From Kiritimatiellia bacterium (GTDB taxonomy: Bacteria; Verrucomicrobiota; Kiritimatiellia; RFP12; UBA1067): a stretch of 42,661 nt of DNA. The stretch spans positions 1 to 42,661 of the forward strand of contig JAFRJH010000028.1 of assembly GCA_017432385.1 (NCBI GenBank). Direction: 5' to 3'. This document shows, one piece after another, positions 8,215-41,541 of this stretch. Below the pieces are notes generated by a model that was given only the letters and a program-made list of their open reading frames with translations, was not told the DNA's origin and did no database searches. Position 1 is the first letter of the stretch. Every line of letters starts with the position of its first letter. Both the position numbers and the translations under genes were made by a program.

Positions 8215-9998
8215 AAACACGCATCTACGGCACAGGACGGACGATTGGCGCGACGGCTGTCGCGGCATTTGCGGCATTCCATGCGATCGCGGGCTCGGTC
8301 GTCAAGATCGAGGGAACCGAAGGCGCCTGGCATCTGACGTTCAACGGAAAGCCCTACTTCATCAACGGCGGCGGAGGCGGCGGGTCGAAGGCTCTTCTCA
8401 GGGAGATCGGCGGCAATTCGTTCCGCACGTGGGGCGCCGACAAGGCGAAGAAGGAGCTGAACGAGGCGGCTAAATACGGCCACACCGTGATGCTCGGCTT
8501 CTGGCTCGGCCACCACAACCACGGCTTCAGCTACCTCGACAGGGCGGCGCTTGAGCGCACGGAACGCGAGGTGCTCGAGACTGTCTCGAAGATCAAGGGG
8601 CATCCCGCGCTCCTCTGCTACGCGCTCGGCAACGAGATGGAGCTCGGCGAGCCCAACCCGAAGGAGATGTGGACCTTCATCAACGACCTCGCAAGGAAGG
8701 TCAAGGCGGCGGATCCGGACCATCCAGTCGGCACCGTCGTCGCGGACATGTGGAAGGACAAGGCGGACGCGATCATCAGGTACGCGCCCGAACTCCAGTA
8801 CATGGGCCTCAACTCCTATGGCGGCGCGCTCACCGTCGGCAGACGCTGGCGCGAGCTCGGAGGCAGGATCCCGTATATCCTAACCGAGTACGGCCCGATG
8901 GGGGCCGACGAGTGCGGCAAGGCGCCGAACGGCCTTCCGCTCGAATGGACGTCGACGCGCAAGGCGGAGTGGTACCGCGATGTCTACGAGAAGACGATCC
9001 TCGACGAGAAGGGCAAGTGGTGCCTCGGCGGATATGTCTTCACATGGGGACACAAGAACGAGGTCTCGCCGACGTGGTTCGGCACGATGCTCCCCGACGG
9101 AACGAAGCTCGAGGTCGTCGCGACGCTCGCGAAGTTCTGGGGGCGGAAGGTCTCCAACCGCTGCCCCGTGATCGGGGAGGTGAAGGTCTCGAAGGACGCC
9201 CCCGGGGAAGGCGAGACCGTCGAGGCCTCGGTGTCCGCCAGCGATCCCGAGGGCGACAGGCTCATTTGGAAGTGGACGCTCGTCGACGAGGCCTCGTACT
9301 ACGGCGAGGCGGGGCTCGGACTTGCGATGCCCGAGGGATGGGACGAGGCGATTGTCGCCGGGCAGGGCACGGACAGGGTCAAGGTGAAGCTTCCCGGAGG
9401 CGGCAAGTACCGTCTCTACGCGTACTGCTTCGACGGCAGGGGCAACGCCGCGTACGCGAACTGGCCCATGCTGGGGAAGGGCCCGAAGCCGAAGAAGGAA
9501 CGCCGCGCCGAGAAGCTTCCGTTCGCCGTGTACGACGACTCTCCGCGCCACTGGTTCGTGTCCGGATACATGGGCAACACCGGCGCACTGAAGGTCGAGG
9601 ACTCGTGCGGGGAGAATCCGCGTTCGGGCGATGCCTGCATGAAAATCTCGTATTCGGCGGGAGACAACTGGGCGGGAATAATGTGGCAGAGCCCCGCGAA
9701 CGACTGGGGCAAGGCGGACGGGGGATTCAACCTCTCCGAGGCGAACACGCTCGTCTTCTGGGCGCGCGGCGAGAAGGGCGGCGAGAAGGTCAAGTTCTTC
9801 TGCGGAGGTTTGAAGGACTGCGCGTTTCCCGACACCGGCAAGGGCGAGACGGAAATCGTGCTGAAGAAGGGGTGGACGCGCTATCGCATCGCTCTCGACG
9901 GCCAGGACCTCTCGCGCATGAAGACCGGCTTTGCCTTCACGCTGGGCGGTCCGGCGAAGACTTTCTACCTTGACGACATCCAGTACGTGAGCCAGTGA
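8211..9998 (+). CDS. clan GH-A (beta/alpha)8 glycoside hydrolase with C-terminal Ig-like and CBM-like modules
   Basis: The ATG overlaps the upstream stop (ATGA at 8211-8214). GGNSFRTWG, LCYALGNEMELG (candidate acid/base NE) and PYILTEYGP (candidate nucleophile E). C-terminal modules begin at about 9162. The exact GH family is not assignable by eye (GH5- or GH158-like architecture). Confidence 0.7.
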   Translation: MKTRIYGTGRTIGATAVAAFAAFHAIAGSVVKIEGTEGAWHLTFNGKPYFINGGGGGGSKALLREIGGNSFRTWGADKAKKELNEAAKYGHTVMLGFWLGHHNHGFSYLDRAALERTEREVLETVSKIKGHPALLCYALGNEMELGEPNPKEMWTFINDLARKVKAADPDHPVGTVVADMWKDKADAIIRYAPELQYMGLNSYGGALTVGRRWRELGGRIPYILTEYGPMGADECGKAPNGLPLEWTSTRKAEWYRDVYEKTILDEKGKWCLGGYVFTWGHKNEVSPTWFGTMLPDGTKLEVVATLAKFWGRKVSNRCPVIGEVKVSKDAPGEGETVEASVSASDPEGDRLIWKWTLVDEASYYGEAGLGLAMPEGWDEAIVAGQGTDRVKVKLPGGGKYRLYAYCFDGRGNAAYANWPMLGKGPKPKKERRAEKLPFAVYDDSPRHWFVSGYMGNTGALKVEDSCGENPRSGDACMKISYSAGDNWAGIMWQSPANDWGKADGGFNLSEANTLVFWARGEKGGEKVKFFCGGLKDCAFPDTGKGETEIVLKKGWTRYRIALDGQDLSRMKTGFAFTLGGPAKTFYLDDIQYVSQ

Positions 9999-10009: not shown

Positions 10010-13000
10010 ATGATGAAAAGACTTCTTGCTGTTGCGATCGCGTCCACGGCAGTCTCTCTCTCGGCCGGCACCTACACCTGGACCGGAGCGGCCGGCAACG
10101 GCCTGTACTTCACCGCCGGCAACTGGGACTACACCGACGACGGCGGCGCGACGACGTCCCCCGCCGCGACCTCGCCGGGCAGCACGCCCGCGGACGACAT
10201 CGTGATCGCCAACGGCGATACGGTGTCCTACGACCCCGGCGGCGACTGGAAGCCGAGCGGGACGACGACGATCTCCGGCGGCTCGACGCTTGTGCAGATC
10301 ACCGGCGGCGCCTGGGCGGAGATCCGCGGCGCGCTGGTCCTCGACGGCGGCACCTACGATTCCGGAACGGCCGGGCAGGTCCGTTTCGACGGGACGGTGA
10401 CGGTGCGCAGCGGCGGCACCCTCTTCCTGCGGGGGACGGCGAGCAACTCCAGCCTCGGCTCGTTCGTGATCGAAACGGGCGGAACGGTCGTCCGCACGGG
10501 TGCCTGGGCCGGCGCGATTCCGCTCGTGATGCGCGGAGGCTGGTTCGAATGCCAGGGCACGTTGTCCAGCCCGAACGCGGCCGACGAATACACGAGCGGT
10601 ACGATCTTCGTTTCGTCCGGCGAGTTCCAGCCGCCGTCGGACACGGAGTTCGACCTGGGCGGCGTGGACTGGATCGTCCGGATGATCTCGCCCCGCCAGA
10701 ACGGCGTCCCCGTCCTCTCCGGCGGCTCCCTCACTCTCTTCAATTCCGGCAACGACGGCTTCTACCAGATGGCCGGCGTCCACGCGAACCTGCCCGCCGG
10801 CTCCGGCGCGGCGGTGACGGTTCCTCGCGCTCCGGAGGACGTCTACTCTCGATACTTCTCGAACGGCAAGTTCACCGTCGCGGGCGCCACGCTCACGCAG
10901 GCCGAATTCGCGGAGCAGATCGTCGTGGAAGCCGCCGCGACGCCGACGAACGGCAACGCCTCGGCGTATTCGACGTTCCGCCTCGCGGCCGTCTCCCCCT
11001 ACGGCATCACGTCGCCTGCCGCCAGCGAAGTCGGCGAAACCTCGGCGACGATCTCCGCGTTCGTGTCGAAGACCGACCCCGGCGCGACGGTCTACGCGCT
11101 CTGGGGCGCGGCCGCAGCCGCGACGGACGACCTCTCCGCGTGGGACCATGCCGAGAGCGCAGGCGCGGCCGTCGCGGAAACCACCTTCACGAAGGCACTT
11201 TCCGGACTGGAGACGGACGTCCCCGTCCACTACGCCTTCGCGATCGTCACGAACGGCGCGGTCGCGGCCGCGACCGCCGTGAAGGCCTTCACGCCGAGCG
11301 CCTACTCCGCCGTCTTCACGGGCGCGGCGGGCGACGGGCTCTGGGCCACCCCCGGCAACTGGCGCGACGGCGTCGTTCTGACCGAGTCTGACACGATCCG
11401 CATCGACGCGGACTGCACGCGTTCCGGCAACCTCAACCTGCAGAACTGGGACATCACCGTGAACGGTGCCTCGTTCGTCTGTACCGCCGAGCTCAACCCC
11501 GGCCCGCGGACGGTCTTGAACGGCTCGATCACGGCCGTCACGTTCATCGCTGGCGGCACGGGCAACGCGCTCGTCGTCCGCGGCTCGTCCGTCGTCTCTA
11601 CGCGCACTAGCAACCTTGGCCAGGCCCCGCGCGGCTTCTACGGCGCCGATCCGCACTTCGACTTCCGCTCAGGCGCCCCGTGCTCCTATACCTACGCCTA
11701 CAATCCCGAGGGCGAGCCCCCGGACTTCTCGGCGGAGTTCAATGCGCTCTTCGCGGGCGGCAAGATCCTCGTGGACGGCGCCGCGCTCACGGCCGCCGAC
11801 ATCGGCCGCGTCGCGTATTCCACGAACACCACCGACCACACCGTGACGCTCACGCTCCTCGAGACGACGGTGAACGCCGCCTTCGCGAGAGCCGCGTCGG
11901 CGAGCGTCGACGGCCTCGCCGCGACGCTCTCCGTCCCGGTCGAGGTCGGCGGCGGAAAGCCGCTCTATCTCCTTTTCGGCACCGATCCGGCGTCCCTCGA
12001 GGAGACGCTCGTCGCAGCCTCCGCTGCCGACGCAACGACCTATACGTTCACGACCAACGGCGTCGAAGGGACGCTCTACCACTACCAGTTCCGCCTCGGC
12101 GAGGCGAACGACCCGGAGTCCGTCCTCGACTCCGCCACGCCCCAGACGTTCTTCGCCTCCGTGACGGGCAACCTCTTCACCGGCACCGCGAACGAGCACG
12201 CCAACGACGCCAGGAACTGGTCGAAGGGCGCGGTTCCCTCGGCTTCGGACATCGTCTACGTCGTAGCCGACGTCGCCAAGCGCGGCACGATGCAGTGGGA
12301 CCTCGAGAACGCGACCGTCGCCGGCTGGGTCCAGATCGGCGAGCGCGTGAACTTCCTGACCACACCCTCCAACGTGCTGACGGTCGCAGGCGACGTCTCG
12401 CTCTCCGGCGGCGCCAACTGGACGCACCTCGGCCCGTCCGCCGCGCCGGAGACGAGTGTCAACGTCGCCGTCACGGGCGACCTGTCGCTCTCCGCCGACT
12501 CCGTGATCCAGGCGGGCACAGCGAGCGACGCTGGCGCGCGACAGTCGCGCGGCTGGTCCCGCAGCGGCCCTGGCTACCGCGAGGACGCGGGTGGCTCGCA
12601 TGCCGGCGACGGCGGGCATTGCACCAACATTACCGGATTCGTCAGCTACGGCTCGATCCTCGACCCGCTTTCGTGGGGCTCCGGCGCGCCTGGCGACGGC
12701 CACGCCTACGCGGGCGGCGGCGTAGTGAAGCTCGTGGTGGGCGGAACGCTCGCGAACGACGGCCTCATCGCCTCGCGCGGCTTCGGCTACGCCCTGGAGG
12801 GCTTTGGCTCCGGTTCCGGGGGGTCCGTCAACATCACTGCCGGCGCGCTGGCCGGATCGGGCGCAATCGACGCCAACGGAGGCAACAACGGACTGCTCGG
12901 TCCCGGTTCCGGAGGACGCGTCAAGGTCGCGCTGACCGGCGCGAACGCGAGTTTCGCGAACTTCTCCGGCACCATCGAGGCGATCGGCGGCTCCATGCAG

Positions 13001-13471
13001 AACCAGACGCAGGCCGACTCGCGGGACATATCGCCCGCCGCCGCCGGCACGGTTTGCCTCTCGACTGCCGCGGACACGGCGCCGACCGTACGCGTCCACA
13101 ACGAATTCCACTACGGCAACGGCCCCGCCACCTGGCGCGTCGCGACCGATCCGGACGCAGTTCCTTCGGCAACGCATCTGCCGGCGATGCAGAACCACGA
13201 CTCGCCTGCGGCGCTCAAGCGCACCAGGTGGGAGCTCTCGGGCAACGGAGCGGTCCGCCTTACTTCCGACGTCATGGTTGCATCCCTTGTCCTTGCGTCA
13301 GGTGACGGCACGCAGATGGTCTACACGGACGGGTTCAAGCTTACGACGCCCACGCTGAGCGTCAATGGCGTCAAGCTCCACGGCGTGTACACGAAGGACA
13401 ATGCAGCCTGGGTCGCCGGCGACGGCTCGGTCACGGTCGGGGGCAGCGGATTCCTCGTATTCGTGCGCTGA
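10010..13471 (+). CDS. giant secreted beta-helix/adhesin-like protein, paralog A
   Basis: SD aaaggag at 10002-10008, then ATGATG at 10010/10013. Signal peptide MMKRLLAVAIASTAVSLSA, then GTYTWTGAAGNGLYFTAGNWDY. Gly-rich solenoid-like C-terminal module (GGSHAGDGGH...GGGVVKLVVGG...GSGGSVNITAG...GGRVKVALTG). Ends GSGFLVFVR. Confidence 0.85.
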   Translation: MMKRLLAVAIASTAVSLSAGTYTWTGAAGNGLYFTAGNWDYTDDGGATTSPAATSPGSTPADDIVIANGDTVSYDPGGDWKPSGTTTISGGSTLVQITGGAWAEIRGALVLDGGTYDSGTAGQVRFDGTVTVRSGGTLFLRGTASNSSLGSFVIETGGTVVRTGAWAGAIPLVMRGGWFECQGTLSSPNAADEYTSGTIFVSSGEFQPPSDTEFDLGGVDWIVRMISPRQNGVPVLSGGSLTLFNSGNDGFYQMAGVHANLPAGSGAAVTVPRAPEDVYSRYFSNGKFTVAGATLTQAEFAEQIVVEAAATPTNGNASAYSTFRLAAVSPYGITSPAASEVGETSATISAFVSKTDPGATVYALWGAAAAATDDLSAWDHAESAGAAVAETTFTKALSGLETDVPVHYAFAIVTNGAVAAATAVKAFTPSAYSAVFTGAAGDGLWATPGNWRDGVVLTESDTIRIDADCTRSGNLNLQNWDITVNGASFVCTAELNPGPRTVLNGSITAVTFIAGGTGNALVVRGSSVVSTRTSNLGQAPRGFYGADPHFDFRSGAPCSYTYAYNPEGEPPDFSAEFNALFAGGKILVDGAALTAADIGRVAYSTNTTDHTVTLTLLETTVNAAFARAASASVDGLAATLSVPVEVGGGKPLYLLFGTDPASLEETLVAASAADATTYTFTTNGVEGTLYHYQFRLGEANDPESVLDSATPQTFFASVTGNLFTGTANEHANDARNWSKGAVPSASDIVYVVADVAKRGTMQWDLENATVAGWVQIGERVNFLTTPSNVLTVAGDVSLSGGANWTHLGPSAAPETSVNVAVTGDLSLSADSVIQAGTASDAGARQSRGWSRSGPGYREDAGGSHAGDGGHCTNITGFVSYGSILDPLSWGSGAPGDGHAYAGGGVVKLVVGGTLANDGLIASRGFGYALEGFGSGSGGSVNITAGALAGSGAIDANGGNNGLLGPGSGGRVKVALTGANASFANFSGTIEAIGGSMQNQTQADSRDISPAAAGTVCLSTAADTAPTVRVHNEFHYGNGPATWRVATDPDAVPSATHLPAMQNHDSPAALKRTRWELSGNGAVRLTSDVMVASLVLASGDGTQMVYTDGFKLTTPTLSVNGVKLHGVYTKDNAAWVAGDGSVTVGGSGFLVFVR
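12170..13468 (+). repeat. conserved C-terminal module, copy 1 (shared with 14738-16078)
   Basis: Collinear protein similarity with paralog B runs from NLFTGTANEHANDARNWSKGAVPSASDIV to the C-terminus. The two genes share nucleotide strings such as accggattcgt, atcctcgacccgctttc and ggacgcgtcaaggtcgcgct. Confidence 0.8.
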
Positions 13472-13513
13472 GGGTCTCCTGCGGTGCAATACTGGTTTTA
13501 GAAAGGGAAAAAC

Positions 13514-16081
13514 ATGAAGAAAATCATTACAATCGCAGTCGCGGCTGTGGCAGGGCACCTCCTCGCCGGCACATACACCTGGACCGGTTCGGCCGGCGAC
13601 GGCCTGTGGACTACAGCCGCAAACTGGAACTATTACGGTGAAACAGCGACTTCGCATCCGGGTAATTCGCCTTCAGATGATGTTGTGATTGATGGAAATT
13701 ACAATGTTATCTATGATGTCGGGTCTGACTTCACTCCGCAGGCAAACGTTGTCATAACGGTATCCGGAGGGGCAACACTTACCCAACAAGGTGGCAACTG
13801 GCAGGACTTCAAAGAGGGGGCTGAACTGATACTTGACAATGGCTCCTACGACGGTGGCTCGGCAACCAATTTCCGACTCAACAATGGAAAGCTTACAATC
13901 AGGAATGGGGGAAAGTTCACTTGTTCTAACGGTGAGCTTAGCCGTAGTGATGCCTCGGTAGTCACTGTGGAATCTGGCGATATTACGCTGAAAGGTAATT
14001 TCAGGTTGCTTGCTTCAGATCGGTTCGTCAGTGGATCAATTACAACAGATGGTGAATTGGTCCCGACAACGAACATCACGCTTGATGGTTTTAGTTTGTC
14101 CTGCTCTACGATGACACCGGCGAATAATCCTGTGATCACCCTGAAGTCCGGTTCGATTTCTACAAGGCGAACAGCAGATGCATCGGATGCCGGTTTCTGG
14201 GGCGCATGTACCGTTGATATTCTTATTGGAAAGGTTGCTTCGTTTTCTGCGCTTGTCCATAATGACAAGACTGCTTATGCAGATACATATGGCACCACGA
14301 GATTTAAGTATAACGGTCCTTCGCTTACGGCTGAAGAATTTGCGGAAATATTCACGACGGAGATTACCTCTGATGGAGATTACTCTCGCTACACGATTTC
14401 TACATCTGAAGTTTCAGGCGCTCCCGCTATCGATAGCTATTCAGCAACCTACTCGGATTCTGCAATTTCATTCGAGGTTTCGCTTGAAGAGTCGTCGGCA
14501 CCGGACACTGTTCTCACACTTTACTATGATACTGCGGATCATGAGCATAACACGTCTTTTGGTTGGCCGAATAGCGTTCCGCTTGTTCTTGATTCGACAG
14601 ACGGTAAATACAAAGCCGTTGTCAATACAAACGTTGATGCGGTTTATTATTACTTGGTTTCTGCCTCAAGCGAATCGGCAGCCCAGACAATTTGGGCAAG
14701 TGGCACCGTTATTGCTGCTGACATGCCGACAGATTCAAACGTTTGGCTCGGCAACACATCAGACATTACACTTCCTTCCAATTGGTCGAAACAGGCGGTG
14801 CCTGGTGCTGACGACATTGTAGAAATTAGCCAGTTCTTCTCCAAGGGAAATCGAATCAACTGGAATGTAGCGGCTGTGCCAGAGGTTGCAGGATGGAGGC
14901 AGAGCAATGCAATGGTTGTTTCGTTCAACACGACAGCGTCATCCGCATTTCTAATCAGTGGGGACGCAAGACTCACGGCTGGTACTTGGACGCATGGCGG
15001 GCCGGCGGATGTGCCGACTGAAATGGTCAATGTTTCCGTTGGTGGCGCGATGACCGTTGGCGCGAACGCCCGCATTGTTGCAGGCACTGGATCGAATGCG
15101 GACGACAACGACGGTGCACCGCGCGGCTATACGCGTGCACATGGTCCTGGCTATCTGCGCACGGCCGGCGGGTCGTATGCAGGAGATGGCGGACACATCA
15201 CGAACACGACCGGATTCGTGAGCTACGGCTCCATCCTCGACCCGCTTTCCTACGGCTCCGGCGGCTGGGGCGACAACTCCGGCTACGGCGGCGGTGGCGT
15301 GATCCGGCTCGTTGTCGGCGGCGCGCTGACGATGGACGGCGTCATCCGCTCCCGCGGATTCGGCTACGCGCTCAACGGGACGATTCCCGAAACCGGGGAA
15401 AGCACCGCGGGTGGCGCGGGCTCCGGCGGATCTATCAACATCACCGCCGCTTCGCTCTCGGGCTCGGGCTCGATCGACGCCAACGGCGGCAATAACGGCC
15501 TCTACGGTCCTGGCAGCGGCGGACGCGTCAAGGTCGCGCTCACCGGCGCGGGAGAGGACTTCTCCGGATTCGCCGGCACGATCGAGGCTGTCGGCGGCTG
15601 GATGGAAAGCCTTGAGTCGCCGGAGTTTTTCGATGTGTCCCCGGCCGCCGCCGGAACCGTATGTCTGCAGGCTGGCGCCGCGAATCCCGTCGTGAAGGTC
15701 CACAATGTCTTCCGCATCGCGGGCGTCGACTCGACGTGGCGCGTCGCCACGGGCGAGGCGGTTCCCTCCGCCACGCACCTGCCGTCCATGCAGGGCGGGG
15801 ACGTGATGTCAGCGCTCAAGAAGACGGCCTGGGAGCTTTCGGGGCGCGGCGCGATCAGGCTCACTGCCGACGCGAGGGTCGCTTCGCTGACGCTCGCCTC
15901 CGACGGCGGCGACCAGCGCGTCTACACCGAAGGGCACACGCTGACGGTCTCCCGCTTCACGGTGAACGGGCTCAAGGTGCCGTATGGCGTGTACACCTCC
16001 GCCGACAAGCCGGGAATCATCATCGGCGACGGCGCGGTCGAGGTGAGGAACTCCGCCGGAATGGCAGTGTACGTTAGGTAA
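13514..16081 (+). CDS. giant secreted beta-helix/adhesin-like protein, paralog B (mosaic composition)
   Basis: Signal peptide MKKIITIAVAAVAGHLLA, then GTYTWTGSAGDGLWTTAANWNY. The C-terminal module is homologous to paralog A. Ends SAGMAVYVR. The central part of the gene is strikingly AT-richer than its surroundings. Confidence 0.85.
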   Translation: MKKIITIAVAAVAGHLLAGTYTWTGSAGDGLWTTAANWNYYGETATSHPGNSPSDDVVIDGNYNVIYDVGSDFTPQANVVITVSGGATLTQQGGNWQDFKEGAELILDNGSYDGGSATNFRLNNGKLTIRNGGKFTCSNGELSRSDASVVTVESGDITLKGNFRLLASDRFVSGSITTDGELVPTTNITLDGFSLSCSTMTPANNPVITLKSGSISTRRTADASDAGFWGACTVDILIGKVASFSALVHNDKTAYADTYGTTRFKYNGPSLTAEEFAEIFTTEITSDGDYSRYTISTSEVSGAPAIDSYSATYSDSAISFEVSLEESSAPDTVLTLYYDTADHEHNTSFGWPNSVPLVLDSTDGKYKAVVNTNVDAVYYYLVSASSESAAQTIWASGTVIAADMPTDSNVWLGNTSDITLPSNWSKQAVPGADDIVEISQFFSKGNRINWNVAAVPEVAGWRQSNAMVVSFNTTASSAFLISGDARLTAGTWTHGGPADVPTEMVNVSVGGAMTVGANARIVAGTGSNADDNDGAPRGYTRAHGPGYLRTAGGSYAGDGGHITNTTGFVSYGSILDPLSYGSGGWGDNSGYGGGGVIRLVVGGALTMDGVIRSRGFGYALNGTIPETGESTAGGAGSGGSINITAASLSGSGSIDANGGNNGLYGPGSGGRVKVALTGAGEDFSGFAGTIEAVGGWMESLESPEFFDVSPAAAGTVCLQAGAANPVVKVHNVFRIAGVDSTWRVATGEAVPSATHLPSMQGGDVMSALKKTAWELSGRGAIRLTADARVASLTLASDGGDQRVYTEGHTLTVSRFTVNGLKVPYGVYTSADKPGIIIGDGAVEVRNSAGMAVYVR
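14738..16078 (+). repeat. conserved C-terminal module, copy 2 (shared with 12170-13468)
   Basis: NVWLGNTSDITLPSNWSKQAVPGADDIV...GPGYLRTAGGSYAGDGGH...GGRVKVALTG...SATHLPSMQ... is collinear with paralog A. Confidence 0.8.
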
Positions 16082-16092
16082 TCCGGTCCGAC

Positions 16093-18210
16093 ATGAAAAG
16101 GATGCTTTCCATTTTCGCGGCCGCGGTGGTTTCCGCCGCGGCCGCCGCGGACGGCGCGCGCTGGATATGGTATCCCGGCGACTACGGGATATGGTGGGGC
16201 AACGAGCTCCAGGGCGAGAGGCTCCAGTGGGGTTCGCGGCTCGTTCCGTTCTGGCCGCTCTACGAGCCGCATTCGCGCGTGCTGTTCAGGAAGGACGTGA
16301 AGCTGGACGCGGACGAGCCGCTGGAGATCCGCTGCGACGGAAACGCCGCGGTCTGGTGGTGGGACGACAAAGGCGTCTACACTGAGAGCTCCGCGCTTCT
16401 CGGGAAGTTCACGCTGCCGAAGAACGCGACCTCCATCGAGATCAAGATCCAGAACAACGCGCGTCCGCCGTCGGTGTGGGTGAAGGGTCCGCACCTCGTC
16501 TCGGACTCCTCCTGGAACGTCGGCTGGACGACGACGTGGGACAAGGCGGAGGATGTTCCGTGCGATTCCTCCGCGCGCTTCACCGACCCCGGGACGCCTC
16601 CGGGCCTCGCGAAGCTTCCGACGCGCGAGAAGAAGCCCGTCTGGTGCCGTCCGCTCGACGGCGTGGAAGGCTCGATCATGGCGGCCGACTTCGGCGAGGA
16701 GACCTACGGATACGTCAGGTTCATCGACGTGAAGGGCGGCGGCGCCGTGAAGGTGATCTACGCCGAGAGCGAGGCGGAGCTGAGAGCCGTCGAGCTCGCG
16801 AACACGAAGGGCGGCGCGCTTGACGGATGGGAGATGCTCGAGCTGTCGGAGACGAAGGAGTTCCGGCGCGACATCGCGCACGGTTTCCGCTACGTCGGCG
16901 TCGTGCGCGCGGGCGGCGACGTCTCGATCGGCGGAATCGCGATGGACTTCGAGACGAAGGCCATGCCGGTTCGCGGGTCGTTCCGCTGCAGCGACGTGGA
17001 GCTGAACCGGATATGGGACGTCTCGGTGCACACGCTGGACCTCACGTGCCGCGAGGTCTTCATCGAGGGCGTGAAGCGAGACCACTGGGTGTGGAGCGGC
17101 GACGCCGTGCAGAGCTTCCTCATGAACTACTACGTGTTCGGGGACTACGACGGATGCCGCGACACGCTCTGGACGCTGCGCGGGAAGGATCCGGTGAAGT
17201 GCCACCTCAACCGCATCATGGACTACACGTTCTACTGGTTCGACGCCGTGGAGAAGTACCGGCTCTACTCCGGCGATCCCGTGTTCGCGCGCCAGGTGTA
17301 TCCGCGCATGAAGTCGCTTATGGAATTCGCGATCTCCCGTCTCGACGCCGCGGGGCGTCCGGCGGACCGCGAGGGCGACTGGATGTTCATCGACTGGGCG
17401 CCGAAGCCGCTGCCGAACAACGGCGGAGTCACGAGCTTCGAGCAGATGCTCCTGGTGCGCGCGCTCGAGGCGACGGCAGGGGTCGCGCGCGACGTCGGCG
17501 CGAAGGGGGACGAGGCGGCGTACCTCGAGCGCGCGAAGAGGCTGCGCGCGGAGATCGTGCCGCGCTACTGGAACGCGGAGAAGGGCGCGCTTATGCACAT
17601 GATCTACAACGACGGCAGGGTGGATCCGACGGTGACGAGGTACCCGAACATGTTCGGGCTCTTCTACGGCTACTTCGACGAGGCGCAGAGGTCTAGTGTC
17701 GTGAAGAACGTGATGCTCGGCGACGGCGTGATGAAGATCCAGACGCCGTACATGCGCTTCTACGAGCTCGAGGCGCTCTGCTCGCTCGGGATGCAGAAGC
17801 GCGTTCTCGGCGAGGTGAAGTCCTACTGGGGCGGCATGCTGCGCCTGGGGGCGACGAGCTTCTGGGAGCTGTACAATCCGGATGAAAGCGGCGAGGCCCA
17901 CTACGCCATGTACGGGCGCCGCTTCGGGAAGTCGCTCTGCCACGCCTGGGGCGCGAGCCCCGTCTATCTGCTCGGCAGGTATTTCCTCGGCGTGGAGCCG
18001 ACTGCCCCCGGCTTCGCGGAGTATGTCGTGAAGCCGGATTCCGGCGGTCTCGAGTGGATGGAGGGGGATGTGCCTACGCCGTCCGGGAGCATCCATGTGT
18101 CGGTGCGCGGCGGACGCGCGACCGTGCGCGGCAACCATGCCGGCAGGGGCGTCCTCCGCTGGAAGGGGAAAACGGCGGAGATACCGCCTGAAGGGAGTGC
18201 AAGCCTATGA
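16093..18210 (+). CDS. six-hairpin glycosidase, GH78 (alpha-L-rhamnosidase)-like
   Basis: Signal peptide MKRMLSIFAAAVVSAAAAA. ARWIWYPGD N-terminal pattern. FRCSDVELNRIWDVSVHTL...FIEGVKRDHWVWSGDA resembles the GH78 catalytic-domain entry (D.pkRD..gWtGD). SLCHAWGASPVYLL lies near the C-terminus. Confidence 0.6.
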   Translation: MKRMLSIFAAAVVSAAAAADGARWIWYPGDYGIWWGNELQGERLQWGSRLVPFWPLYEPHSRVLFRKDVKLDADEPLEIRCDGNAAVWWWDDKGVYTESSALLGKFTLPKNATSIEIKIQNNARPPSVWVKGPHLVSDSSWNVGWTTTWDKAEDVPCDSSARFTDPGTPPGLAKLPTREKKPVWCRPLDGVEGSIMAADFGEETYGYVRFIDVKGGGAVKVIYAESEAELRAVELANTKGGALDGWEMLELSETKEFRRDIAHGFRYVGVVRAGGDVSIGGIAMDFETKAMPVRGSFRCSDVELNRIWDVSVHTLDLTCREVFIEGVKRDHWVWSGDAVQSFLMNYYVFGDYDGCRDTLWTLRGKDPVKCHLNRIMDYTFYWFDAVEKYRLYSGDPVFARQVYPRMKSLMEFAISRLDAAGRPADREGDWMFIDWAPKPLPNNGGVTSFEQMLLVRALEATAGVARDVGAKGDEAAYLERAKRLRAEIVPRYWNAEKGALMHMIYNDGRVDPTVTRYPNMFGLFYGYFDEAQRSSVVKNVMLGDGVMKIQTPYMRFYELEALCSLGMQKRVLGEVKSYWGGMLRLGATSFWELYNPDESGEAHYAMYGRRFGKSLCHAWGASPVYLLGRYFLGVEPTAPGFAEYVVKPDSGGLEWMEGDVPTPSGSIHVSVRGGRATVRGNHAGRGVLRWKGKTAEIPPEGSASL

Positions 18211-20033
18211 AGACGCATATTCTCGCTGCGGCCGCGATTGCCGCGCTTTCGGCCTCGGCAGGTTTCAGGGACGCCCTTGGCCCCAACGTGCGCGTGTTCT
18301 CCCCGTCCGACGACCCGGCCGAGGTCCGTCGCGTCGCGGAGGAGCTGTTCAAGAAGCAGCACCACAGCCAGTTCGGGCCGAACCGCTACGCGCTCCTTTT
18401 CCTTCCGGGGGACTACGTCAAGGCGGGGACGTTCAATGTCGGCTACTACACGCAGCTGCTCGGCCTCGGGCGGACGCCCGACGAGGTGAAGCTCTGCAAC
18501 GTCAAGACGCCTGCGGCCCTTCCCGACAACAACGCCACTTGCAACTTCTGGGTCGGGATAGAGAATGTCGAGATCGTAGACACGGACCGCAACGACGACC
18601 CGTTCTTCGGTTTCCAGTGGGCCGTGTCCCAGGCCGCTCCCGCGCGGCGCCTGCTGGTCGGGCGCAAGGCCGTCTTCGACTGGTTCTACGGGTGGGCGTC
18701 CGGCGGATACGTCGCCGACACGATCTTCCGCAAGCCGGCCGGCTCCCATTCCCAGCAGCAGTACTACTACCGGAACGACACCTTCGAGCAGGGGGACTAC
18801 GGAATCAACTGGAACAAGGTCGTGCAGGGTTCGGACGGCAGGACCGGGACGACGAACTGGCGACAGGGTGGATCCGCCACGTTCCTCCAGACCACGCCGG
18901 TGATCCGCGAGAAGCCGTTCCTGTTCGTCGACGGCGACGCACTCAAGGTGTTCGTGCCCGCCCTCAGGCGCGACGCGAGGGGGACGAGCTGGAAGCCCGG
19001 CGAAATGGGCCGGGGGCGGACGCTCGACGTAGTCCGCGACTTCCACGTCGCCGTCGCCGGGCGCGACACGGCGAAGACCGTCAACGCCGCGCTCGCCGCC
19101 GGCAGGAACGTCCTCTTCACCCCGGGCGTATACCGCGTCGAGGAGCCGGTGCGCGTCGCCAAGGCGGGCGCCGTCGTTCTCGGCATCGGAGAGGCGACGC
19201 TCGTCCCCGAAAACCCGGACGCCGCGCTCGTGTGCGCGGATGTGGACGACATCACCGTCGCCGGACTCGTCTTCGACGCCGAGCGCGCCTCGCGCCGCTT
19301 CGTGGTTGTCGGCGAGCGGAAGGGCGGTGCGTCGCACGCCGCGGCGCCGACGGTTCTCCACGACCTCGTCTACCGCGTCGGCGGAACCGGCAGGCCGGGG
19401 AAGACCGAAGTCGCGCTTGAGATCAACTCGAACGACGTCATCGTCGACCAGACGTGGATATGGCGCGCGGACCACGGCGACCACACGGGGTGGCGGGCGA
19501 ACACCTCGAGGAACGGGATCGTGGTCAACGGCGACCGCGTCACCTGCTACGGCCTCTTCGTCGAGCACTTCCAGGAGCACGACGTACTTTGGAACGGCGA
19601 GGACGGGCGCACCTTCTTCCTCCAGAACGAGAAATGCTACGATCCGCCCGGCAACGCGGTCTGGATGTCCCACGGCGGGAAGAAGAAGGGCTATGCCGCG
19701 TACAAGGTCGCTGACGGCGTCAGCCGCCACTACGCGACTGGACTCGGCGTCTACGACGTCTTCATCAACACGGACGGCAACAGCGTCTTCCTCGACGACG
19801 CGATCGAGGTCCCCGACGCGCCGGGAGTCGTGGTTGAAAACGCCTGCATAGTCGAGATCGCCAAGGGGGACGGTCCGCTTGTCGGCATCAACCACATAGT
19901 GAACGGGCATGGCCACGGCATCAGGACGGGAAAGGGCTCCGGCGGCGGGTACGCCGTCCAGCGCGTCTACCGCTACTGCAACGGCAGCGCGGACGTCGCC
20001 GACGACTACTACGCGGCGCACAAGGGCAAGTGA
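18207..20033 (+). CDS. secreted right-handed beta-helix-like hydrolase, family unassigned
   Basis: The ATG overlaps the upstream stop (ATGA at 18207-18210). Signal peptide MKTHILAAAAIAALSASA. QFGPNRYALLFLPGDY...VGYYTQLLGLGRTPDEVKL...NFWVGIENVEIV, then WIWRADHG and repeated short beta-strand motifs. The function is inferred only from the operon context. Confidence 0.45.
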   Translation: MKTHILAAAAIAALSASAGFRDALGPNVRVFSPSDDPAEVRRVAEELFKKQHHSQFGPNRYALLFLPGDYVKAGTFNVGYYTQLLGLGRTPDEVKLCNVKTPAALPDNNATCNFWVGIENVEIVDTDRNDDPFFGFQWAVSQAAPARRLLVGRKAVFDWFYGWASGGYVADTIFRKPAGSHSQQQYYYRNDTFEQGDYGINWNKVVQGSDGRTGTTNWRQGGSATFLQTTPVIREKPFLFVDGDALKVFVPALRRDARGTSWKPGEMGRGRTLDVVRDFHVAVAGRDTAKTVNAALAAGRNVLFTPGVYRVEEPVRVAKAGAVVLGIGEATLVPENPDAALVCADVDDITVAGLVFDAERASRRFVVVGERKGGASHAAAPTVLHDLVYRVGGTGRPGKTEVALEINSNDVIVDQTWIWRADHGDHTGWRANTSRNGIVVNGDRVTCYGLFVEHFQEHDVLWNGEDGRTFFLQNEKCYDPPGNAVWMSHGGKKKGYAAYKVADGVSRHYATGLGVYDVFINTDGNSVFLDDAIEVPDAPGVVVENACIVEIAKGDGPLVGINHIVNGHGHGIRTGKGSGGGYAVQRVYRYCNGSADVADDYYAAHKGK

Positions 20034-25440: not shown

Positions 25441-25481
25441 CGTGGCGACAGAGGACATGGAAACTCCAAAAGAGGATTGAA

Positions 25482-27602: not shown

Positions 27603-27604
27603 CC

Positions 27605-33709: not shown

Positions 33710-35230
33710 ATGAAACGCAAAACACAGTCCCCGGCCTCGCTTTCGGTGTGCGTCCTCGCGTCGCTTGCCGCGGCCTTCGCGTCAGCCGCGACCTACGATG
33801 TCTCGACCGTCGACGATCTTTCCGATGCGGCTGCCCGCGCGAAGAGGGGCGATGTCATCCGCGTCGCCGCCGGGACGTATATGCTCTCCGCTACCGTAGA
33901 TGTTTCGAACGACGGTGTCTCGATGGTGTCGGCCGGCGGTAAGACGGACACCGTCCTCGACGGCGGCTCGGCCATCCGCATACTCGACGTGTCCGGCGCG
34001 GACTTCAGGGTCGAGGGCATTACCTTCAGGAACGGGCGCACCACGGGGAACGGCGGCGCAATCCGCTACAGCTCCTCGTCTGTGTCGCAGACGACCGTGG
34101 TCAAGGACTGCGACTTCATAGACTGCGTCGCGAAATACGGCGGCGCGATCTACGCCGGGCAGAACAGCTACGCGTCTTTTCTGCCGCGCGAAAACTACGG
34201 CGTCGTCCGCGGCTGGACGTTCCTCAGGTGCGGGATAGACTCGACCGGGACGTCCGACAGCCAGGGCGGCGGCGGCGGGATATGCGGCGCGCTGTGGGTT
34301 GAGGACAGCGTCTTCGACGCCTGCTTCTGCACGACGCACAATGTGCAGGAATACCATCTTGCAATCGACGTCCCGAGCTACACGACCATTACGAACTGCA
34401 TCTTCCGCAACCACACAAACATCACGCGTGGGCTGGTCGGGTCCAAGGAGCAGCGGGAGCAGCTGGGCTGCGCGCGGCTCGTCGACTGCCTCATAGCCAA
34501 CAACACGTCGACCGGACCAGATGACGTGCTGTTCCACCGCAAGGTGATCCTCGACCGCTGCGTCATATCGAACAACGCATCCACGGTAACTTCGGCGATT
34601 TCGTCGCTGTACAGGCTTGACGCCACCGGCGACAGGGGCTTCAGCAGGGCGACGAGCTGCCTTTTCGTCGACAACCAGTACCCGTTCAACATGGCCAACC
34701 TGCCTCCGATTCTGAACTGCACGTTCGTCCGCAACGTCGGCGGCCTCGCCTGCGATTACACGGAGTCGCTGAAGTTCGCGATTACCAACTGCGTCTTCTG
34801 GGGGAACACAGCGAAGGCCGATTGGCCGTTCAACGCATCCTACAAGGGCGCCCCGGGCCTCTACTGGCACCCCAACACGCAGCTTCAGGACTTTGCGCGG
34901 CTTGCGAACGTAGTAATCGACGGCGGGAACGAAAACGCGGACGTCGCGGGCGTCCTCGCGACCGATTCGTCGGGCCGCTCCACGCAGCTCACCGCGGCGG
35001 CGGCAGCGAACGGCCCCGGCTTCAAGGACGCCGCAAGCGGCGACTGGACGCTCCACAGGGTGTCCGTGCTGGTCGACGCCGGCGTGCTGCAGGACTGGAT
35101 GGCCGCGGCGTGCGACCTCGCCGGCAACCTGCGTTGCCTCCTCGACGGCAGGAAGGCCCCGTCCGCCGTCCCGGACATCGGGTGCTACGAATACCGCTCG
35201 ATGGCGGGCTTTGCGATCCGCATGCGCTGA
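33710..35230 (+). CDS. secreted right-handed parallel beta-helix protein with Pmp-like GGAI / FxxN-type repeats
   Basis: Signal peptide MKRKTQSPASLSVCVLASLAAAFASA. Repeats ITFRNGRTTGNGGAIRY, CDFIDCVAKYGGAIYA, CIFRNH, CLIANN, CVISNN, CLFVDN, CTFVRN and CVFWGN. DIGCYEY lies near the end, as in many beta-helix proteins. Ends MAGFAIRMR. Confidence 0.8.
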   Translation: MKRKTQSPASLSVCVLASLAAAFASAATYDVSTVDDLSDAAARAKRGDVIRVAAGTYMLSATVDVSNDGVSMVSAGGKTDTVLDGGSAIRILDVSGADFRVEGITFRNGRTTGNGGAIRYSSSSVSQTTVVKDCDFIDCVAKYGGAIYAGQNSYASFLPRENYGVVRGWTFLRCGIDSTGTSDSQGGGGGICGALWVEDSVFDACFCTTHNVQEYHLAIDVPSYTTITNCIFRNHTNITRGLVGSKEQREQLGCARLVDCLIANNTSTGPDDVLFHRKVILDRCVISNNASTVTSAISSLYRLDATGDRGFSRATSCLFVDNQYPFNMANLPPILNCTFVRNVGGLACDYTESLKFAITNCVFWGNTAKADWPFNASYKGAPGLYWHPNTQLQDFARLANVVIDGGNENADVAGVLATDSSGRSTQLTAAAAANGPGFKDAASGDWTLHRVSVLVDAGVLQDWMAAACDLAGNLRCLLDGRKAPSAVPDIGCYEYRSMAGFAIRMR

Positions 35231-38748: not shown

Positions 38749-41541
38749 ATGAAAGCAAGTAGCCTAAAATGGAATGGACGGTATGTCGCGGCGGCTCTTA
38801 CGGGTGCTGTTCTGGCCTTGGCTCTGACGGCTGGGGCCGCAGACCTCTGCTGGAACGGCGGCTCCGGCGATTCCCTTGCCGACCCCGCAAATTGGGGCGT
38901 GTACGGCGGGTCGTCCCCTGCAGGCCGCGTCCCGGGCAGTGGCGATACGATTTTCATTATAGCCAGCAGACCGTTGACGTTCTCGGTCGACAATGAGACC
39001 GACATGGCCGTGGTGAACGGCTGCCAAGGCATCCTTCTGAGGGAGAACAGCCCTGCCACGACATGCAACGTCGTCGTTCCACCAGGCGCGGACGCGGCCA
39101 TATCCGTGCCGATCTACGGCTACGAAAGGGGGCGCGGCACCCTCAACTTCAGCGGCTCCGGAACCGTTAGCCTGACCTCCGGCGGCAAGGCGGACTATGC
39201 CGCGCTCTATCTGAACATAGACGGCACCGAAGTGCTGCTTCCGCAGGGCGACGGCCTTTCAACAGGGGCGATTGTCTACGGACACGTGGCCGTATCCAAT
39301 GGCGGGACGCTTCACCTTCCGACTGGCCACAGTGGTTCGACCGGCAGCAACTACATAGACATGCTGTCGCTTTCCGGCGACGGCACGGTCACCGCTTCCG
39401 AGCAGACCGAACTGCGCCTTACCAACGGCGGAGGCGTGTTCTCGGGCGTTCTCGAGACGAACATCAGCCTCTGGGTGACAAAGGGCCGCCACGACCTCAC
39501 GGGCACGAACTCCACGATGAACGTCAGGTCGCCGCGTGTTTCCTTCGCCACCGCGAACTGGGCTAACGAAGGCTCCGCGGTGCTGGGCGTCGCGAAGATC
39601 GGCCGGAAGGGCGAGAATTCCTCGCTGGGACGAAAGAATGCATTCGACACCAACGTATCGGGTGGAACATACGTGTATCTGGGCGAGGGCGAGGAGACGG
39701 ACAAGGCCTTCTACGCCTACGCGCACGACGGCTACAGCGTGCTGGACGCCGGAGCCACGGGCGGCATCGTGTTCAAGGGCGCCGGCAGCGGCCTTGAAGG
39801 CGGCGGAAAGTCCGAGTACAACTGCATATTCGGCCTTTCCGGCTCCAATACCGTGCCGTGCGTCGTCAGGGGCAAGGTGACCGAGAGGTCGGCCAACGAC
39901 CTTGTGACGATTGTCAAGAAGGGGACAGGGACATGGCGCCTGGCGGACCCGGCGCTTGACGGACTCGCCGTGAAGGACAACCGCAATTTCCGCGGGGCGA
40001 TCTCCGTGGACGAAGGCGTGCTGCAGTTCGATACGGTCGCGCCGCCCAACGAGTACTGCTCCGTGGGCCTCGCGACCATGCGCAAGACGCCGCAGCTCGG
40101 GGTGTGGGCGACGCTCGCCGACGTGGACTGGGCGTTTTCGCTGGGCGGCACAAACGCCGCGCTCAACGCCTTGGCGGAAGGCACGCTTGAATACACGGGC
40201 ACGGAGGCAGCACTCGCGGACCGCCGCCCCGTAATCCTGAATGCGGACGGACGCCTGCGCGCGAACGCCGCGAAGAAGATTCGCTACCGACTTCTTCCGC
40301 CCGTCACGGCGTGCGCGAAGACGCTGTCGCTGGACGGCTCGTCGCTCGCAACGAACGAGGTCCACGACGTGACGGACACGGCGGAGAATCCCGTTTCCGT
40401 GGTCAAGGAAGGGCCCGGCACATGGCTTATGGGCGGCGACCTGTCGTTCCATGGCGCCCTTGCCGTCAAGGGCGGCAAGCTGATTGTGCGCGACTACGCC
40501 CCGGGCACGAACTATTCGTGGTTCCGCTTTACGGTCAAGAACCTGTTCGATCCTGTCGCCGCCGGCAGCAAGGGCAACGTATCGGTGTCCTTCCTGGGGC
40601 TCTTCGACGGAACCGGCCATTGCCAGACAATGGATGCGCTTTCGTCCGAGAACATGCTTGCGGCCTCCATTGAGCCGGGCGAGGCCGGCTACGAGACGAC
40701 GCGGGCGCATTCAAGGGGAGGCTACTCGTCCAATGGCTGGAACAACGACAACATCACCAACCTCTTCCGCAGTGCGGCAAACACCGTGTTTGATCTGAAC
40801 ATGAAGGACAAGGCCGGCGACGGCAGCTGCTATCCGCGGCTCGAGGACGAATCGTCCTGGCTCCCGCTTGTCGTTCGGCTCACCAACGGCGCGCCTGCGG
40901 TCGCGTCCTACGACTGGGTCACGACCTATGGCTGGGCCATGAAGAACAACGGAGGCTTCCACTGGATGCCGAACGTCTGGTCGCTCGAGGGCAGCGTGGA
41001 CGGAATGCACTGGGAAAACGTCAAGACGGACGGCGGAGACTATTCCATCTCCACGAACGACTGTGCGTCTGCCGCGAGTGACGGAACCTTCATATTCGCG
41101 GGCGTCGCGATGGATCGCGACTATGCCTTGTATTCCGCGAAGAGCCCCGTCAACCACATGAGCGGCTGCGCGATACGCGGGACCTCCACCAACTCATACG
41201 ACGTCCTGTCGAACGTCCGTTCTCTGCGCGTCGACGCCGGCGCGACGCTGGAGCTCGAGAACGTCGAGGCCACGTTCTCGAAGCTCGCCGTCGACATGTC
41301 CGTTGGCGGCGGGACAATCAAGGGCGCGGCGTTCGCCGGCAGCGGTTCCATTGACCTTCTGAACTACGTCCGCACCGGCAGTCAGTCTGTTTCAATCGAC
41401 CTCGAGTCTTCCTCGGGTACGTCGGGCATAAGGTCCTGGACGGTGTCGGTCGCGGGCCAGGTGGATCCTCGCCTGCGCGCCAAATACGCCAATGGCGTCC
41501 TTACTGTGCGTTCGGGCGGAATGTTCGTGGTCGTGAGGTAG
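38749..41541 (+). CDS. secreted autotransporter-associated beta-strand-repeat protein with a discoidin-like C-terminal region
   Basis: Signal peptide ...AAALTGAVLALALTAGA, then ADLCWNGGSGDSLADPANWGVY. Repeats of the type TIVKKGTGTWRLAD and VVKEGPGTWLMGGDLSFHGALAVKGGKLIV. WFRFTVKNLF...WSLEGSVDGMHWENV is F5/8-type-C-like. Ends SGGMFVVVR. Confidence 0.8.
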   Translation: MKASSLKWNGRYVAAALTGAVLALALTAGAADLCWNGGSGDSLADPANWGVYGGSSPAGRVPGSGDTIFIIASRPLTFSVDNETDMAVVNGCQGILLRENSPATTCNVVVPPGADAAISVPIYGYERGRGTLNFSGSGTVSLTSGGKADYAALYLNIDGTEVLLPQGDGLSTGAIVYGHVAVSNGGTLHLPTGHSGSTGSNYIDMLSLSGDGTVTASEQTELRLTNGGGVFSGVLETNISLWVTKGRHDLTGTNSTMNVRSPRVSFATANWANEGSAVLGVAKIGRKGENSSLGRKNAFDTNVSGGTYVYLGEGEETDKAFYAYAHDGYSVLDAGATGGIVFKGAGSGLEGGGKSEYNCIFGLSGSNTVPCVVRGKVTERSANDLVTIVKKGTGTWRLADPALDGLAVKDNRNFRGAISVDEGVLQFDTVAPPNEYCSVGLATMRKTPQLGVWATLADVDWAFSLGGTNAALNALAEGTLEYTGTEAALADRRPVILNADGRLRANAAKKIRYRLLPPVTACAKTLSLDGSSLATNEVHDVTDTAENPVSVVKEGPGTWLMGGDLSFHGALAVKGGKLIVRDYAPGTNYSWFRFTVKNLFDPVAAGSKGNVSVSFLGLFDGTGHCQTMDALSSENMLAASIEPGEAGYETTRAHSRGGYSSNGWNNDNITNLFRSAANTVFDLNMKDKAGDGSCYPRLEDESSWLPLVVRLTNGAPAVASYDWVTTYGWAMKNNGGFHWMPNVWSLEGSVDGMHWENVKTDGGDYSISTNDCASAASDGTFIFAGVAMDRDYALYSAKSPVNHMSGCAIRGTSTNSYDVLSNVRSLRVDAGATLELENVEATFSKLAVDMSVGGGTIKGAAFAGSGSIDLLNYVRTGSQSVSIDLESSSGTSGIRSWTVSVAGQVDPRLRAKYANGVLTVRSGGMFVVVR

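Follow-up and report, generated by a model that had tools for sequence, protein, structure and literature searches.

Do the last residues of a secreted protein belong to its fold, or can they form a signal in their own right? The question is raised by a 42,661 nt stretch of DNA (hereafter the window; 65% G+C, with all large genes on the plus strand) from metagenome contig JAFRJH010000028.1 of a Kiritimatiellia bacterium. Four large genes of the window, here termed A, B, C and D, encode secreted proteins whose translations end in GSGFLVFVR, SAGMAVYVR, MAGFAIRMR and SGGMFVVVR, respectively. Translation places these endings—the tail—exactly where a preliminary description of this DNA had put them (coordinates in Table 1). 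The sequence comparisons and structure models set out below indicate that the tail is a modular addition, found only where the protein truly ends. It looks like a previously undescribed C-terminal sorting or docking signal, and a new pathway behind it is a realistic possibility.

The tail is specific to these four genes within the window. Of the 255 six-frame, stop-to-stop segments of at least 80 amino acids (aa), 42 end in Arg; a loose pattern consisting of h-x-h-x-h-[RK] directly before the stop (h, hydrophobic; x, any residue) is matched by the four tails only. The earlier observation that no other secreted protein of the window carries the tail is thereby upheld for every reading frame, and the endings quoted for three of those proteins (YRYYRW, IQYVSQ and FETEIR) are correct on translation. 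At the DNA level, the pattern GGN NTN NNN NTN NNN NTN MGN TRR is found four times, precisely at the four tail sites, against an expectation of 0.11, and 0 of 100 shuffled sequences reached four matches. A chance origin of the four tails is excluded. The four genes do not all use the same Arg codon (CGC or AGG) or the same stop codon, which places the constraint at the protein level. With 44% identity in alignment, A and B are paralogues, and hence the window contains three independent families rather than four unrelated passengers. The preliminary description had spoken of unrelated passenger regions; this does not hold for A and B, although the tail does recur on further unrelated families (see below).

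Conservation extends well beyond the window. The tail is present in 32/35 homologues of the A/B family, 110/120 homologues of C (at least three more were missed by the regular expression) and 50/54 homologues of D. In all, it is conserved in ~190 homologues of the three families, down to ~25% identity, and the exceptions are mostly fragments. Most D-family matches in 41 metagenome loci extend to the last residue of the query. When 59 fetched loci were searched with the DNA pattern, 28 of the 29 matches proved to be the exact 3' end of the C- or D-family gene for which the locus had been fetched; the remaining match (locus L057, 144–167, minus strand) falls outside all open reading frames (ORFs) of 300 aa or more, and is probably a chance match. 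All named homologues and related genomes are Kiritimatiellae/Kiritimatiellia metagenome-assembled genomes from rumen or gut, some of those from rumen being filed under the older labels "Verrucomicrobia" or "Lentisphaerae". So far, then, the tail has been seen only in gut and rumen Kiritimatiellae.

Comparison of 103 unique tails gives the generalised motif [G/P]-h-x-h-x-h-[R>K]-COOH. Counting back from the C-terminus, position -7 is G/P, -6 is F/L/M/T, -4 is I/V/L and -2 is V/I/L/F, while R closes 94 of the 103 tails and K or, in rare cases, Q the others. Positions -5 and -3 vary freely, with polar residues (K/S/R) in family C and mainly hydrophobic ones in A/B and D. The pattern first proposed for the tail, G[FM].[VI].[VM]R, does match the four window proteins but is too narrow, given that -7 can be P and the other positions are broader. 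This profile indicates that selection keeps one face of a six-residue strand, together with its exact distance from the free C-terminus. A single conserved hydrophobic face with two free positions fits a strand that docks via one face.

Two sets of unusual endings bear on the terminal residue. A few full-length members (P0329, P0268, P0134, P0172, P0202, and those at L057 5302–8160 and L026 5896–8727) lack a terminal R/K; their endings are LGMMLLVL, PGFLLQVW, ETVILIY, GMNINIS, GFVIIVD, PPGMTIIVL and PGTILTIQ. To judge from these endings, the hydrophobic strand is more strictly conserved than the basic end. At locus L015, two adjacent secreted proteins (14974–18192 and 18248–19717), one of them GH16-like (GH, glycoside hydrolase), end in GADRGFMILRSGR and GADRGFMILRAVGR: a tail-like G-F-M-I-L-R followed by 3–4 additional residues. 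If related to the tail, these endings would argue against a strict need for the free carboxylate on Arg.

Is the tail merely the last strand of a domain that the carriers have in common? AlphaFold2 models were available for C (mean per-residue confidence, pLDDT, of 90.5) and B (pLDDT 82.5). In the B model, the last assigned strand comprises residues 841–844; residues 849–855, which are exactly GMAVYVR, have pLDDT below 50 and no secondary structure, and the adjacent region scores 90–94. The C model has no secondary structure past residue 482, and residues 501–506 average a pLDDT of 54. Thus, in both models the motif is unstructured and of low confidence whereas the preceding body is confidently predicted, and the structure-prediction check speaks against a last strand of a common domain.

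Distant relatives of the C beta-helix lead in the same direction. A profile search of 1.84 billion representative sequences was made, and the C-termini of the best 150 hits were read. Relatives with differing N-terminal architectures retain the tail, ending 10–13 residues past the conserved PD[IL]GCYE motif that closes the helix (for example, KAGFSIIVR, KKGLLLLVR, IPGMLLFLR and NPGLMLIIK). In proteins with two beta-helix modules (P0326, P0329, P0358 and P0268), the tail follows the last module only. In three others (P0236, P0249 and P0269), a C-terminal domain of ~95–165 aa replaces the tail (endings CFYQIVVE, RFYEVLEK or RFFKALESNY). No relative from outside the clade with another recognisable C-terminal signal was seen among these 150 hits. 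Since the tail lies outside the modelled folds, is placed modularly and can be replaced by another domain, it behaves as an appended tag rather than as the last strand of a shared domain.

One of the replacing domains recurs elsewhere. An ending of the form (E/N)(P/S)(S/T)CFYQIVVE closes a C-terminal module of ~95 aa in large secreted proteins of 598 to 2704 aa (L001 12309–16268; L003 13042–21120; L011 1415–8935; L013 12419–20533; L007 17–1813), and closes P0236, a beta-helix relative of C, in place of the Arg tail. The module is recognised by neither Pfam nor NCBIfam. In the same organisms it might serve as an alternative domain for sorting or anchoring.

The tail is not confined to the families of the window. 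Carriers number a few hundred and span at least six protein families: A/B, C, D and at least three more from flanking DNA. The latter include a family E that resembles proteins with autotransporter-associated beta-strand (PATR) repeats (L001 18256–20307, ending ATVIVLR; L008 1761–4658, GTIIIVK; L009 5112–7394, GTLIMVK), proteins of 1310 and 843 aa beside a D homologue in L014 (PRGTTIIFR, PKGVILYLK), a 2119-aa protein in L018 (IPKGTTIVFR) and a protein with fn3/PKD domains (SRGFYFICK). Nearly all are Sec-exported beta-solenoids, being either PATR-type proteins or polysaccharide-lyase-like beta-helices.

An N-terminal signal peptide was present in each carrier that was checked. In a heuristic gene set drawn from the window and 11 genome loci (themselves fetched via family C), the tail occurs in 12/57 proteins with a signal peptide and in 1/49 without; in this lone exception, a merged ORF, a signal peptide lies internally. 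The restriction to secreted proteins was checked across ~0.7 Mb of related DNA, sampled as loci, and there all tails are on signal-peptide proteins. None of the housekeeping or cytoplasmic neighbours (ribosomal, cell-wall, regulatory, metabolic) in the sampled loci has one.

A further secreted protein is associated with the D family. This conserved protein of ~1045 aa (L014 12828–15974; L026 8964–12098; L010 1561–4857) has no tail, ending instead in FYFGDDAQNLLARL or similar, and has no Pfam match in precomputed tables. In two loci its gene lies directly 3' of a D-family gene, which suggests a functional gene pair.

Does the tail correspond to any C-terminal signal already described? Searches of the four proteins and other carriers against Pfam and NCBIfam returned no match covering the tail, and no description of it came up in full-text literature searches on sorting and C-terminal signals in Kiritimatiell*, Lentisphaer* and Verrucomicrobia. 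The preliminary description had considered the tail too short for a PEP-CTERM, LPXTG or type IX secretion system (T9SS) signal, and the defining features of each of these indeed fail in motif and model tests. No PEP occurs in the four tails or in ~100 unique homologue tails (the nearest approaches are EPPT and MPT). Only 5–6 residues separate the G/P from a single R, where PEP-CTERM has a transmembrane helix of ~15–20 residues and an Arg/Lys cluster, and no NCBIfam model of the TIGR02595 type matches at E<=0.1. The LPXTG motif of sortase substrates is absent from the sequences, with no model match; likewise, the tail has neither the signature motif nor the transmembrane helix of GlyGly-CTERM. 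What the tail does share with these tripartite signals is that it is modular, lineage-restricted and found on unrelated secreted proteins, and that it combines a small motif, hydrophobic residues and a basic end. It differs in having five hydrophobic residues instead of ~15–20, one basic residue instead of a cluster, and no PEP, GG or LPXTG. Tripartite signals of other phyla occupy the same spot, following "G.G.h.V" or "DIGCYE".

As regards T9SS, no Por_Secre_tail or gliding-CTERM match is obtained (Pfam/NCBIfam, E<=0.1), the tail of C follows its beta-helix with no extra domain, and no T9SS machinery (PorK/L/M/N, Sov, PorV, PorU) was seen across ~52 kb of the source contig and various scattered loci. 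The likeness is in the basic C-terminal strand and the Sec-dependent cargo, often a beta-helix or adhesin: the last strand (beta7) of the T9SS C-terminal domain, "motif C-t.", bears a conserved Lys and is essential for export, and loss of the last residues blocks secretion (PMC11285876). However, that domain is a folded, Ig-like unit of ~70–100 aa from Bacteroidota and relatives, while the tail comprises ~7 residues without a match to it, in a lineage of the Planctomycetes-Verrucomicrobia-Chlamydiae (PVC) group. Type I secretion does not apply, given the N-terminal Sec signal peptides of all four proteins and their homologues, which substrates of that system lack, their signal being a C-terminal one of ~50 aa, often with RTX repeats.

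The closest resemblance is to the beta-signal of outer-membrane proteins, recognised by BamA/BamD and with the consensus LGLGYRF (PMC10629564). Both stand at the C-terminal end of Sec-exported proteins, have a Gly followed by alternating hydrophobic residues (G-h-x-h-x-h; in the tail, G/P at -7 and hydrophobics at -6, -4 and -2) with a basic residue near the end, and would be read as a beta-strand; the core of the tail matches the beta-signal logic h-G-h-x-aromatic-(+)-F. The tail is nevertheless no classical beta-signal. In place of the terminal aromatic (F/Y/W), the unique tails end in R or else in K or Q, with Arg added after the last hydrophobic position, and a single W was seen; nor does the strand close a barrel, as the models show a right-handed beta-helix (C) or a solenoid plus sandwich domains (B), soluble folds and no barrel. 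The contrast drawn earlier between terminal Arg and the aromatic residue of beta-signals is less sharp than it was made out to be, with the core resembling a beta-signal plus one Arg. Classical autotransporters (type V secretion) also have a Sec signal peptide and a beta-solenoid passenger with PATR repeats; here, though, Pfam and NCBIfam find no C-terminal 12-strand barrel, only the PATR repeat in D, and the protein stops after its seven-residue strand.

Another parallel is found in chaperone-usher pilins, in which the terminal alternating-hydrophobic strand is bound in trans by beta-augmentation and the carboxylate fixes the register. For the tail, binding in trans is a proposal. Pilins are small Ig-like subunits that miss a strand, unlike the large solenoids here, and no PapD-like chaperone or usher was seen.

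Our preferred explanation, to which we assign a probability of about one half, treats the tail as a C-terminal recognition peptide, modular and specific to this lineage, to which a partner binds in trans by beta-augmentation for delivery within the cell envelope. According to this proposal, the signal peptide would carry the protein over the inner membrane and the solenoid body would fold in the periplasm, leaving the last six residues free, separated from the body by the Gly/Pro turn. These residues would then be bound as an amphipathic strand by beta-strand augmentation, with -6, -4 and -2 facing into a groove, and with the terminal Arg and the free carboxylate setting the register. Taken together, the register relative to the free C-terminus, the hydrophobic face, the turn and the location outside the folds make augmentation in trans the simplest mechanism consistent with the data. 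The most likely receptor would be an outer-membrane beta-barrel, either the lateral gate of an Omp85/BamA-like protein or a dedicated anchor barrel. A barrel is favoured because G-h-x-h-x-h is the core of the beta-signal (PMC10629564), and because T9SS export cannot do without the last strand of the C-terminal domain, which bears the conserved Lys (PMC11285876). The outcome would be delivery to, or retention at, the cell surface, beside the co-encoded glycoside hydrolases. The preliminary description's reading of the tail as a candidate sorting signal of surface proteins can thus be kept in part: the same tail is found at the C-terminus of unrelated families, like a modular tag, while the sorting role and surface location—as also the recognition in trans, the augmentation, the nature of the receptor and any processing—are things that we infer.

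The most specific form of this proposal is that the tail marks a hitherto unrecognised route of outer-membrane targeting and anchoring in Kiritimatiellae, in which a seven-residue, beta-signal-like strand ending in Arg would suffice to hand a folded solenoid lacking a barrel to an Omp85-type or dedicated barrel in trans. We regard this form as doubtful. If true, it would amount to an "autotransporter without its own barrel", displaying polysaccharide-lyase-like and PATR proteins on the surface.

Several points weigh against recognition in trans. No receptor, sortase or conserved machinery gene lies beside the tail genes in any locus examined. Nearly all carriers are of the beta-solenoid type, with the tail always after a short strand and a turn, and AlphaFold2 may miss an intramolecular hairpin or cap. 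The terminal residue varies (K, Q, and rarely L, W, Y, S or D). The suggested link to the beta-signal is one of resemblance, and a stretch of six residues is too short to cross a membrane unaided. Finally, the sampled DNA was fetched via tail-bearing genes and is biased for that reason.

A first rival reading is that the tail is an intrinsic structural element: the last strand of a hairpin that caps the solenoid edge, its Arg acting as an aggregation "gatekeeper", with no partner and no sorting. We consider this possible but unlikely. Carriers are almost all beta-solenoid or beta-rich, a short h-x-h-x strand and a Gly/Pro turn always precede the tail, alternating hydrophobics are typical of any edge strand, and ordinary domains may end in a hydrophobic strand and R, as does a DUF6259 protein (LEPFSIAVIR). 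A cap sits less well with models of two families that leave the motif alone unstructured and of low confidence next to a confident body, with the internal modules of two-module proteins that end in "DIGCYE" without a tail, and with the existence of the same beta-helix body under a different C-terminal domain. Nor would independent caps be expected to show the same motif, at the same distance from the C-terminus, after structurally different last domains. Alternatively, a free, aggregation-prone strand of fixed register could insert into the edge or groove of another copy or another tail protein, building fibres or a surface lattice in the manner of donor-strand exchange in pili. Some tail genes are direct neighbours, namely A and B in the window and a run of three in L014, and the conserved GTYTWTG strand just past the signal peptide of A and B is a possible acceptor; family C, however, has no such N-terminal motif, an acceptor groove has not been identified, and carriers of 219 to 2119 aa with diverse architectures would be unusual subunits of one polymer. 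A homotypic strand of this kind strikes us as improbable.

Beta-augmentation is also how PDZ domains bind C-terminal peptides, whose free carboxylate they read; this, together with the fixed position of the tail relative to the C-terminus, raises the idea of a tag for proteolysis or quality control: a periplasmic PDZ protease (Prc/CtpA/DegS-like) would read it for maturation or sensing, or the Arg would shield the C-terminus from tail-specific proteases. The PDZ ligands known from bacteria have a hydrophobic or aromatic last residue and not Arg; protection alone would leave the conserved G/P at -7 and the three-position hydrophobic face unexplained; and no S41 or PDZ gene was seen near tail genes in the loci examined. 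Such a tag seems to us very improbable. Hardly credible is the view that the tail is a non-functional vestige of a PEP-CTERM- or GlyGly-CTERM-type signal whose transmembrane helix has been lost, even though some tails resemble the start of such signals (GEPPTILVLR, MPTVILVR, PPGLTLSFR), the order of motif, hydrophobics and basic residue is that of a miniature tripartite plan, and proteins of related fold (Rhombotarget A) have GlyGly-CTERM in other phyla. A vestige should decay, yet length, register and terminal Arg are kept to ~25% identity in several families, and the sequences inspected include no full-length PEP-CTERM homologue and no PEP-CTERM model match.

The four carrier genes, their predicted signal peptides and their tails are listed in Table 1. 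The signal peptide of A has a basic n-region, a hydrophobic core and small residues at -3 and -1, and the GTYTWTG that follows its predicted cleavage site is conserved among homologues. A and B have no Pfam or NCBIfam match, and the B model has no significant structural match in the PDB. For the exact product of B, as for that of the last small ORF of the window, no database record turned up. C shows weak Beta_helix and Chondroitinase_B matches, under the Pfam cut-offs, and its model is matched by Foldseek to chondroitinase B, PL6 lyases and Rhombotarget A. D contains a TIGR02601 repeat at residues 550–580 (NCBIfam).

Table 1. Tail-bearing genes of the window, with predicted signal peptides and tails.
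Feature	Position	Strand	Basis and remarks
Gene A, 1152-aa secreted solenoid, paralogue of B	10013..13471	+	ORF; start from same-contig gene call (L016 19576 = window 10013)
Signal peptide A, predicted Sec, MKRLLAVAIASTAVSLSA before GTYTW	10013..10066	+	By eye; cleavage site inferred
Tail A, G-F-L-V-F-V-R and TGA stop	13448..13471	+	Translation, DNA pattern
Gene B, 855-aa secreted solenoid	13514..16081	+	ORF
Signal peptide B, predicted Sec, MKKIITIAVAAVAGHLLA before GTYTW	13514..13567	+	Predicted cleavage site; residues 1–17 a low-pLDDT helix in the model
Tail B, G-M-A-V-Y-V-R and TAA stop	16058..16081	+	Translation, DNA pattern
Gene C, 506-aa right-handed beta-helix, polysaccharide-lyase (PL6/chondroitinase B)-like	33710..35230	+	ORF; P0036 100% identical
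Signal peptide C, predicted Sec, MKRKTQSPASLSVCVLASLAAAFASA before ATYDV	33710..33787	+	Predicted cleavage site; residues 1–23 pLDDT <50
Tail C, G-F-A-I-R-M-R and TGA stop	35207..35230	+	Starts 5 residues past conserved PDIGCYEY motif
Gene D, 930-aa secreted protein with autotransporter-associated beta-strand (PATR) repeat	38749..41541	+	ORF; 98% identical to P0156 (930 aa)
Signal peptide D, predicted Sec, MKASSLKWNGRYVAAALTGAVLALALTAGA before ADLCW	38749..38838	+	Predicted by eye
Tail D, G-M-F-V-V-V-R and TAG stop	41518..41541	+	Translation, DNA pattern

The neighbours of A–D in the window are signal-peptide glycoside hydrolases without the tail (GH2-like, GH81, a GH20-like enzyme after D, and others). 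The last of these named (41566–42660) begins 25 bp past D and exceeds the window end; it has a signal peptide and the GH20 hexosaminidase signature HWHLTDDQGWR. Two adjacent genes (7291–8214 and 8211–9998) encode secreted proteins with a common ending, TFYLDDIQY(IAER/VSQ), and a GH2-type enzyme at a related locus (L015 1149–3086) ends in TFFLDDIEYVP. In contrast to the Arg tail, this type of ending probably represents the final strand of a carbohydrate-binding-type domain common to these proteins. Domains resembling inosine-uridine nucleoside hydrolases occur in the products of two further neighbouring genes (25344–26531 and 26873–31123), which begin with signal peptides or an N-terminus like a lipobox. 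In the product of the second, this domain is fused to a large, glycosidase-like C-terminal region; the Arg-rich opening stretch of the ORF is probably untranslated, the likely true start being MRRFALAAAALSS.

Across the loci, the genes next to tail genes code for glycoside hydrolases (themselves without the tail), GDSL esterases, regulators and housekeeping functions, and none recurs as a candidate for the machinery. Two arrangements were noted upstream of tail genes. Firstly, a secreted, retropepsin-like aspartyl protease (Asp_protease_2; L003 2–1213, L004 271–1308, L013 358–1296) is encoded ~9 kb upstream of family C in three related genomes, and is the sole protease seen near tail genes. 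Secondly, P0203, a distant tail protein of the D family, lies directly downstream of secY at the end of a ribosomal-protein operon, and family C in other genomes lies ~6 kb downstream of secY (loci for both cases taken together: L012 8470–12616; L013 2676–11494; also L003 and L004), which may be coincidence or synteny. The presence of the protease gene and secY upstream of family C most likely reflects synteny among close relatives.

Kiritimatiellae are abundant glycan degraders of rumen, gut and marine sediments, and we know of essentially no account of how they, or other members of the PVC group, place proteins on or beyond the outer membrane. With seven residues, such a tag would rank among the shortest signals for sorting or docking so far known from bacteria. 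A simple regular expression for it could predict which proteins of the group reach the surface; the tag could also lead to its receptor, through phylogenetic profiling or pull-down with the peptide, and lend itself to surface display as a compact label. Should the tail prove to mimic the beta-signal, it would also bear on how machines of the Omp85 family read C-terminal strands.

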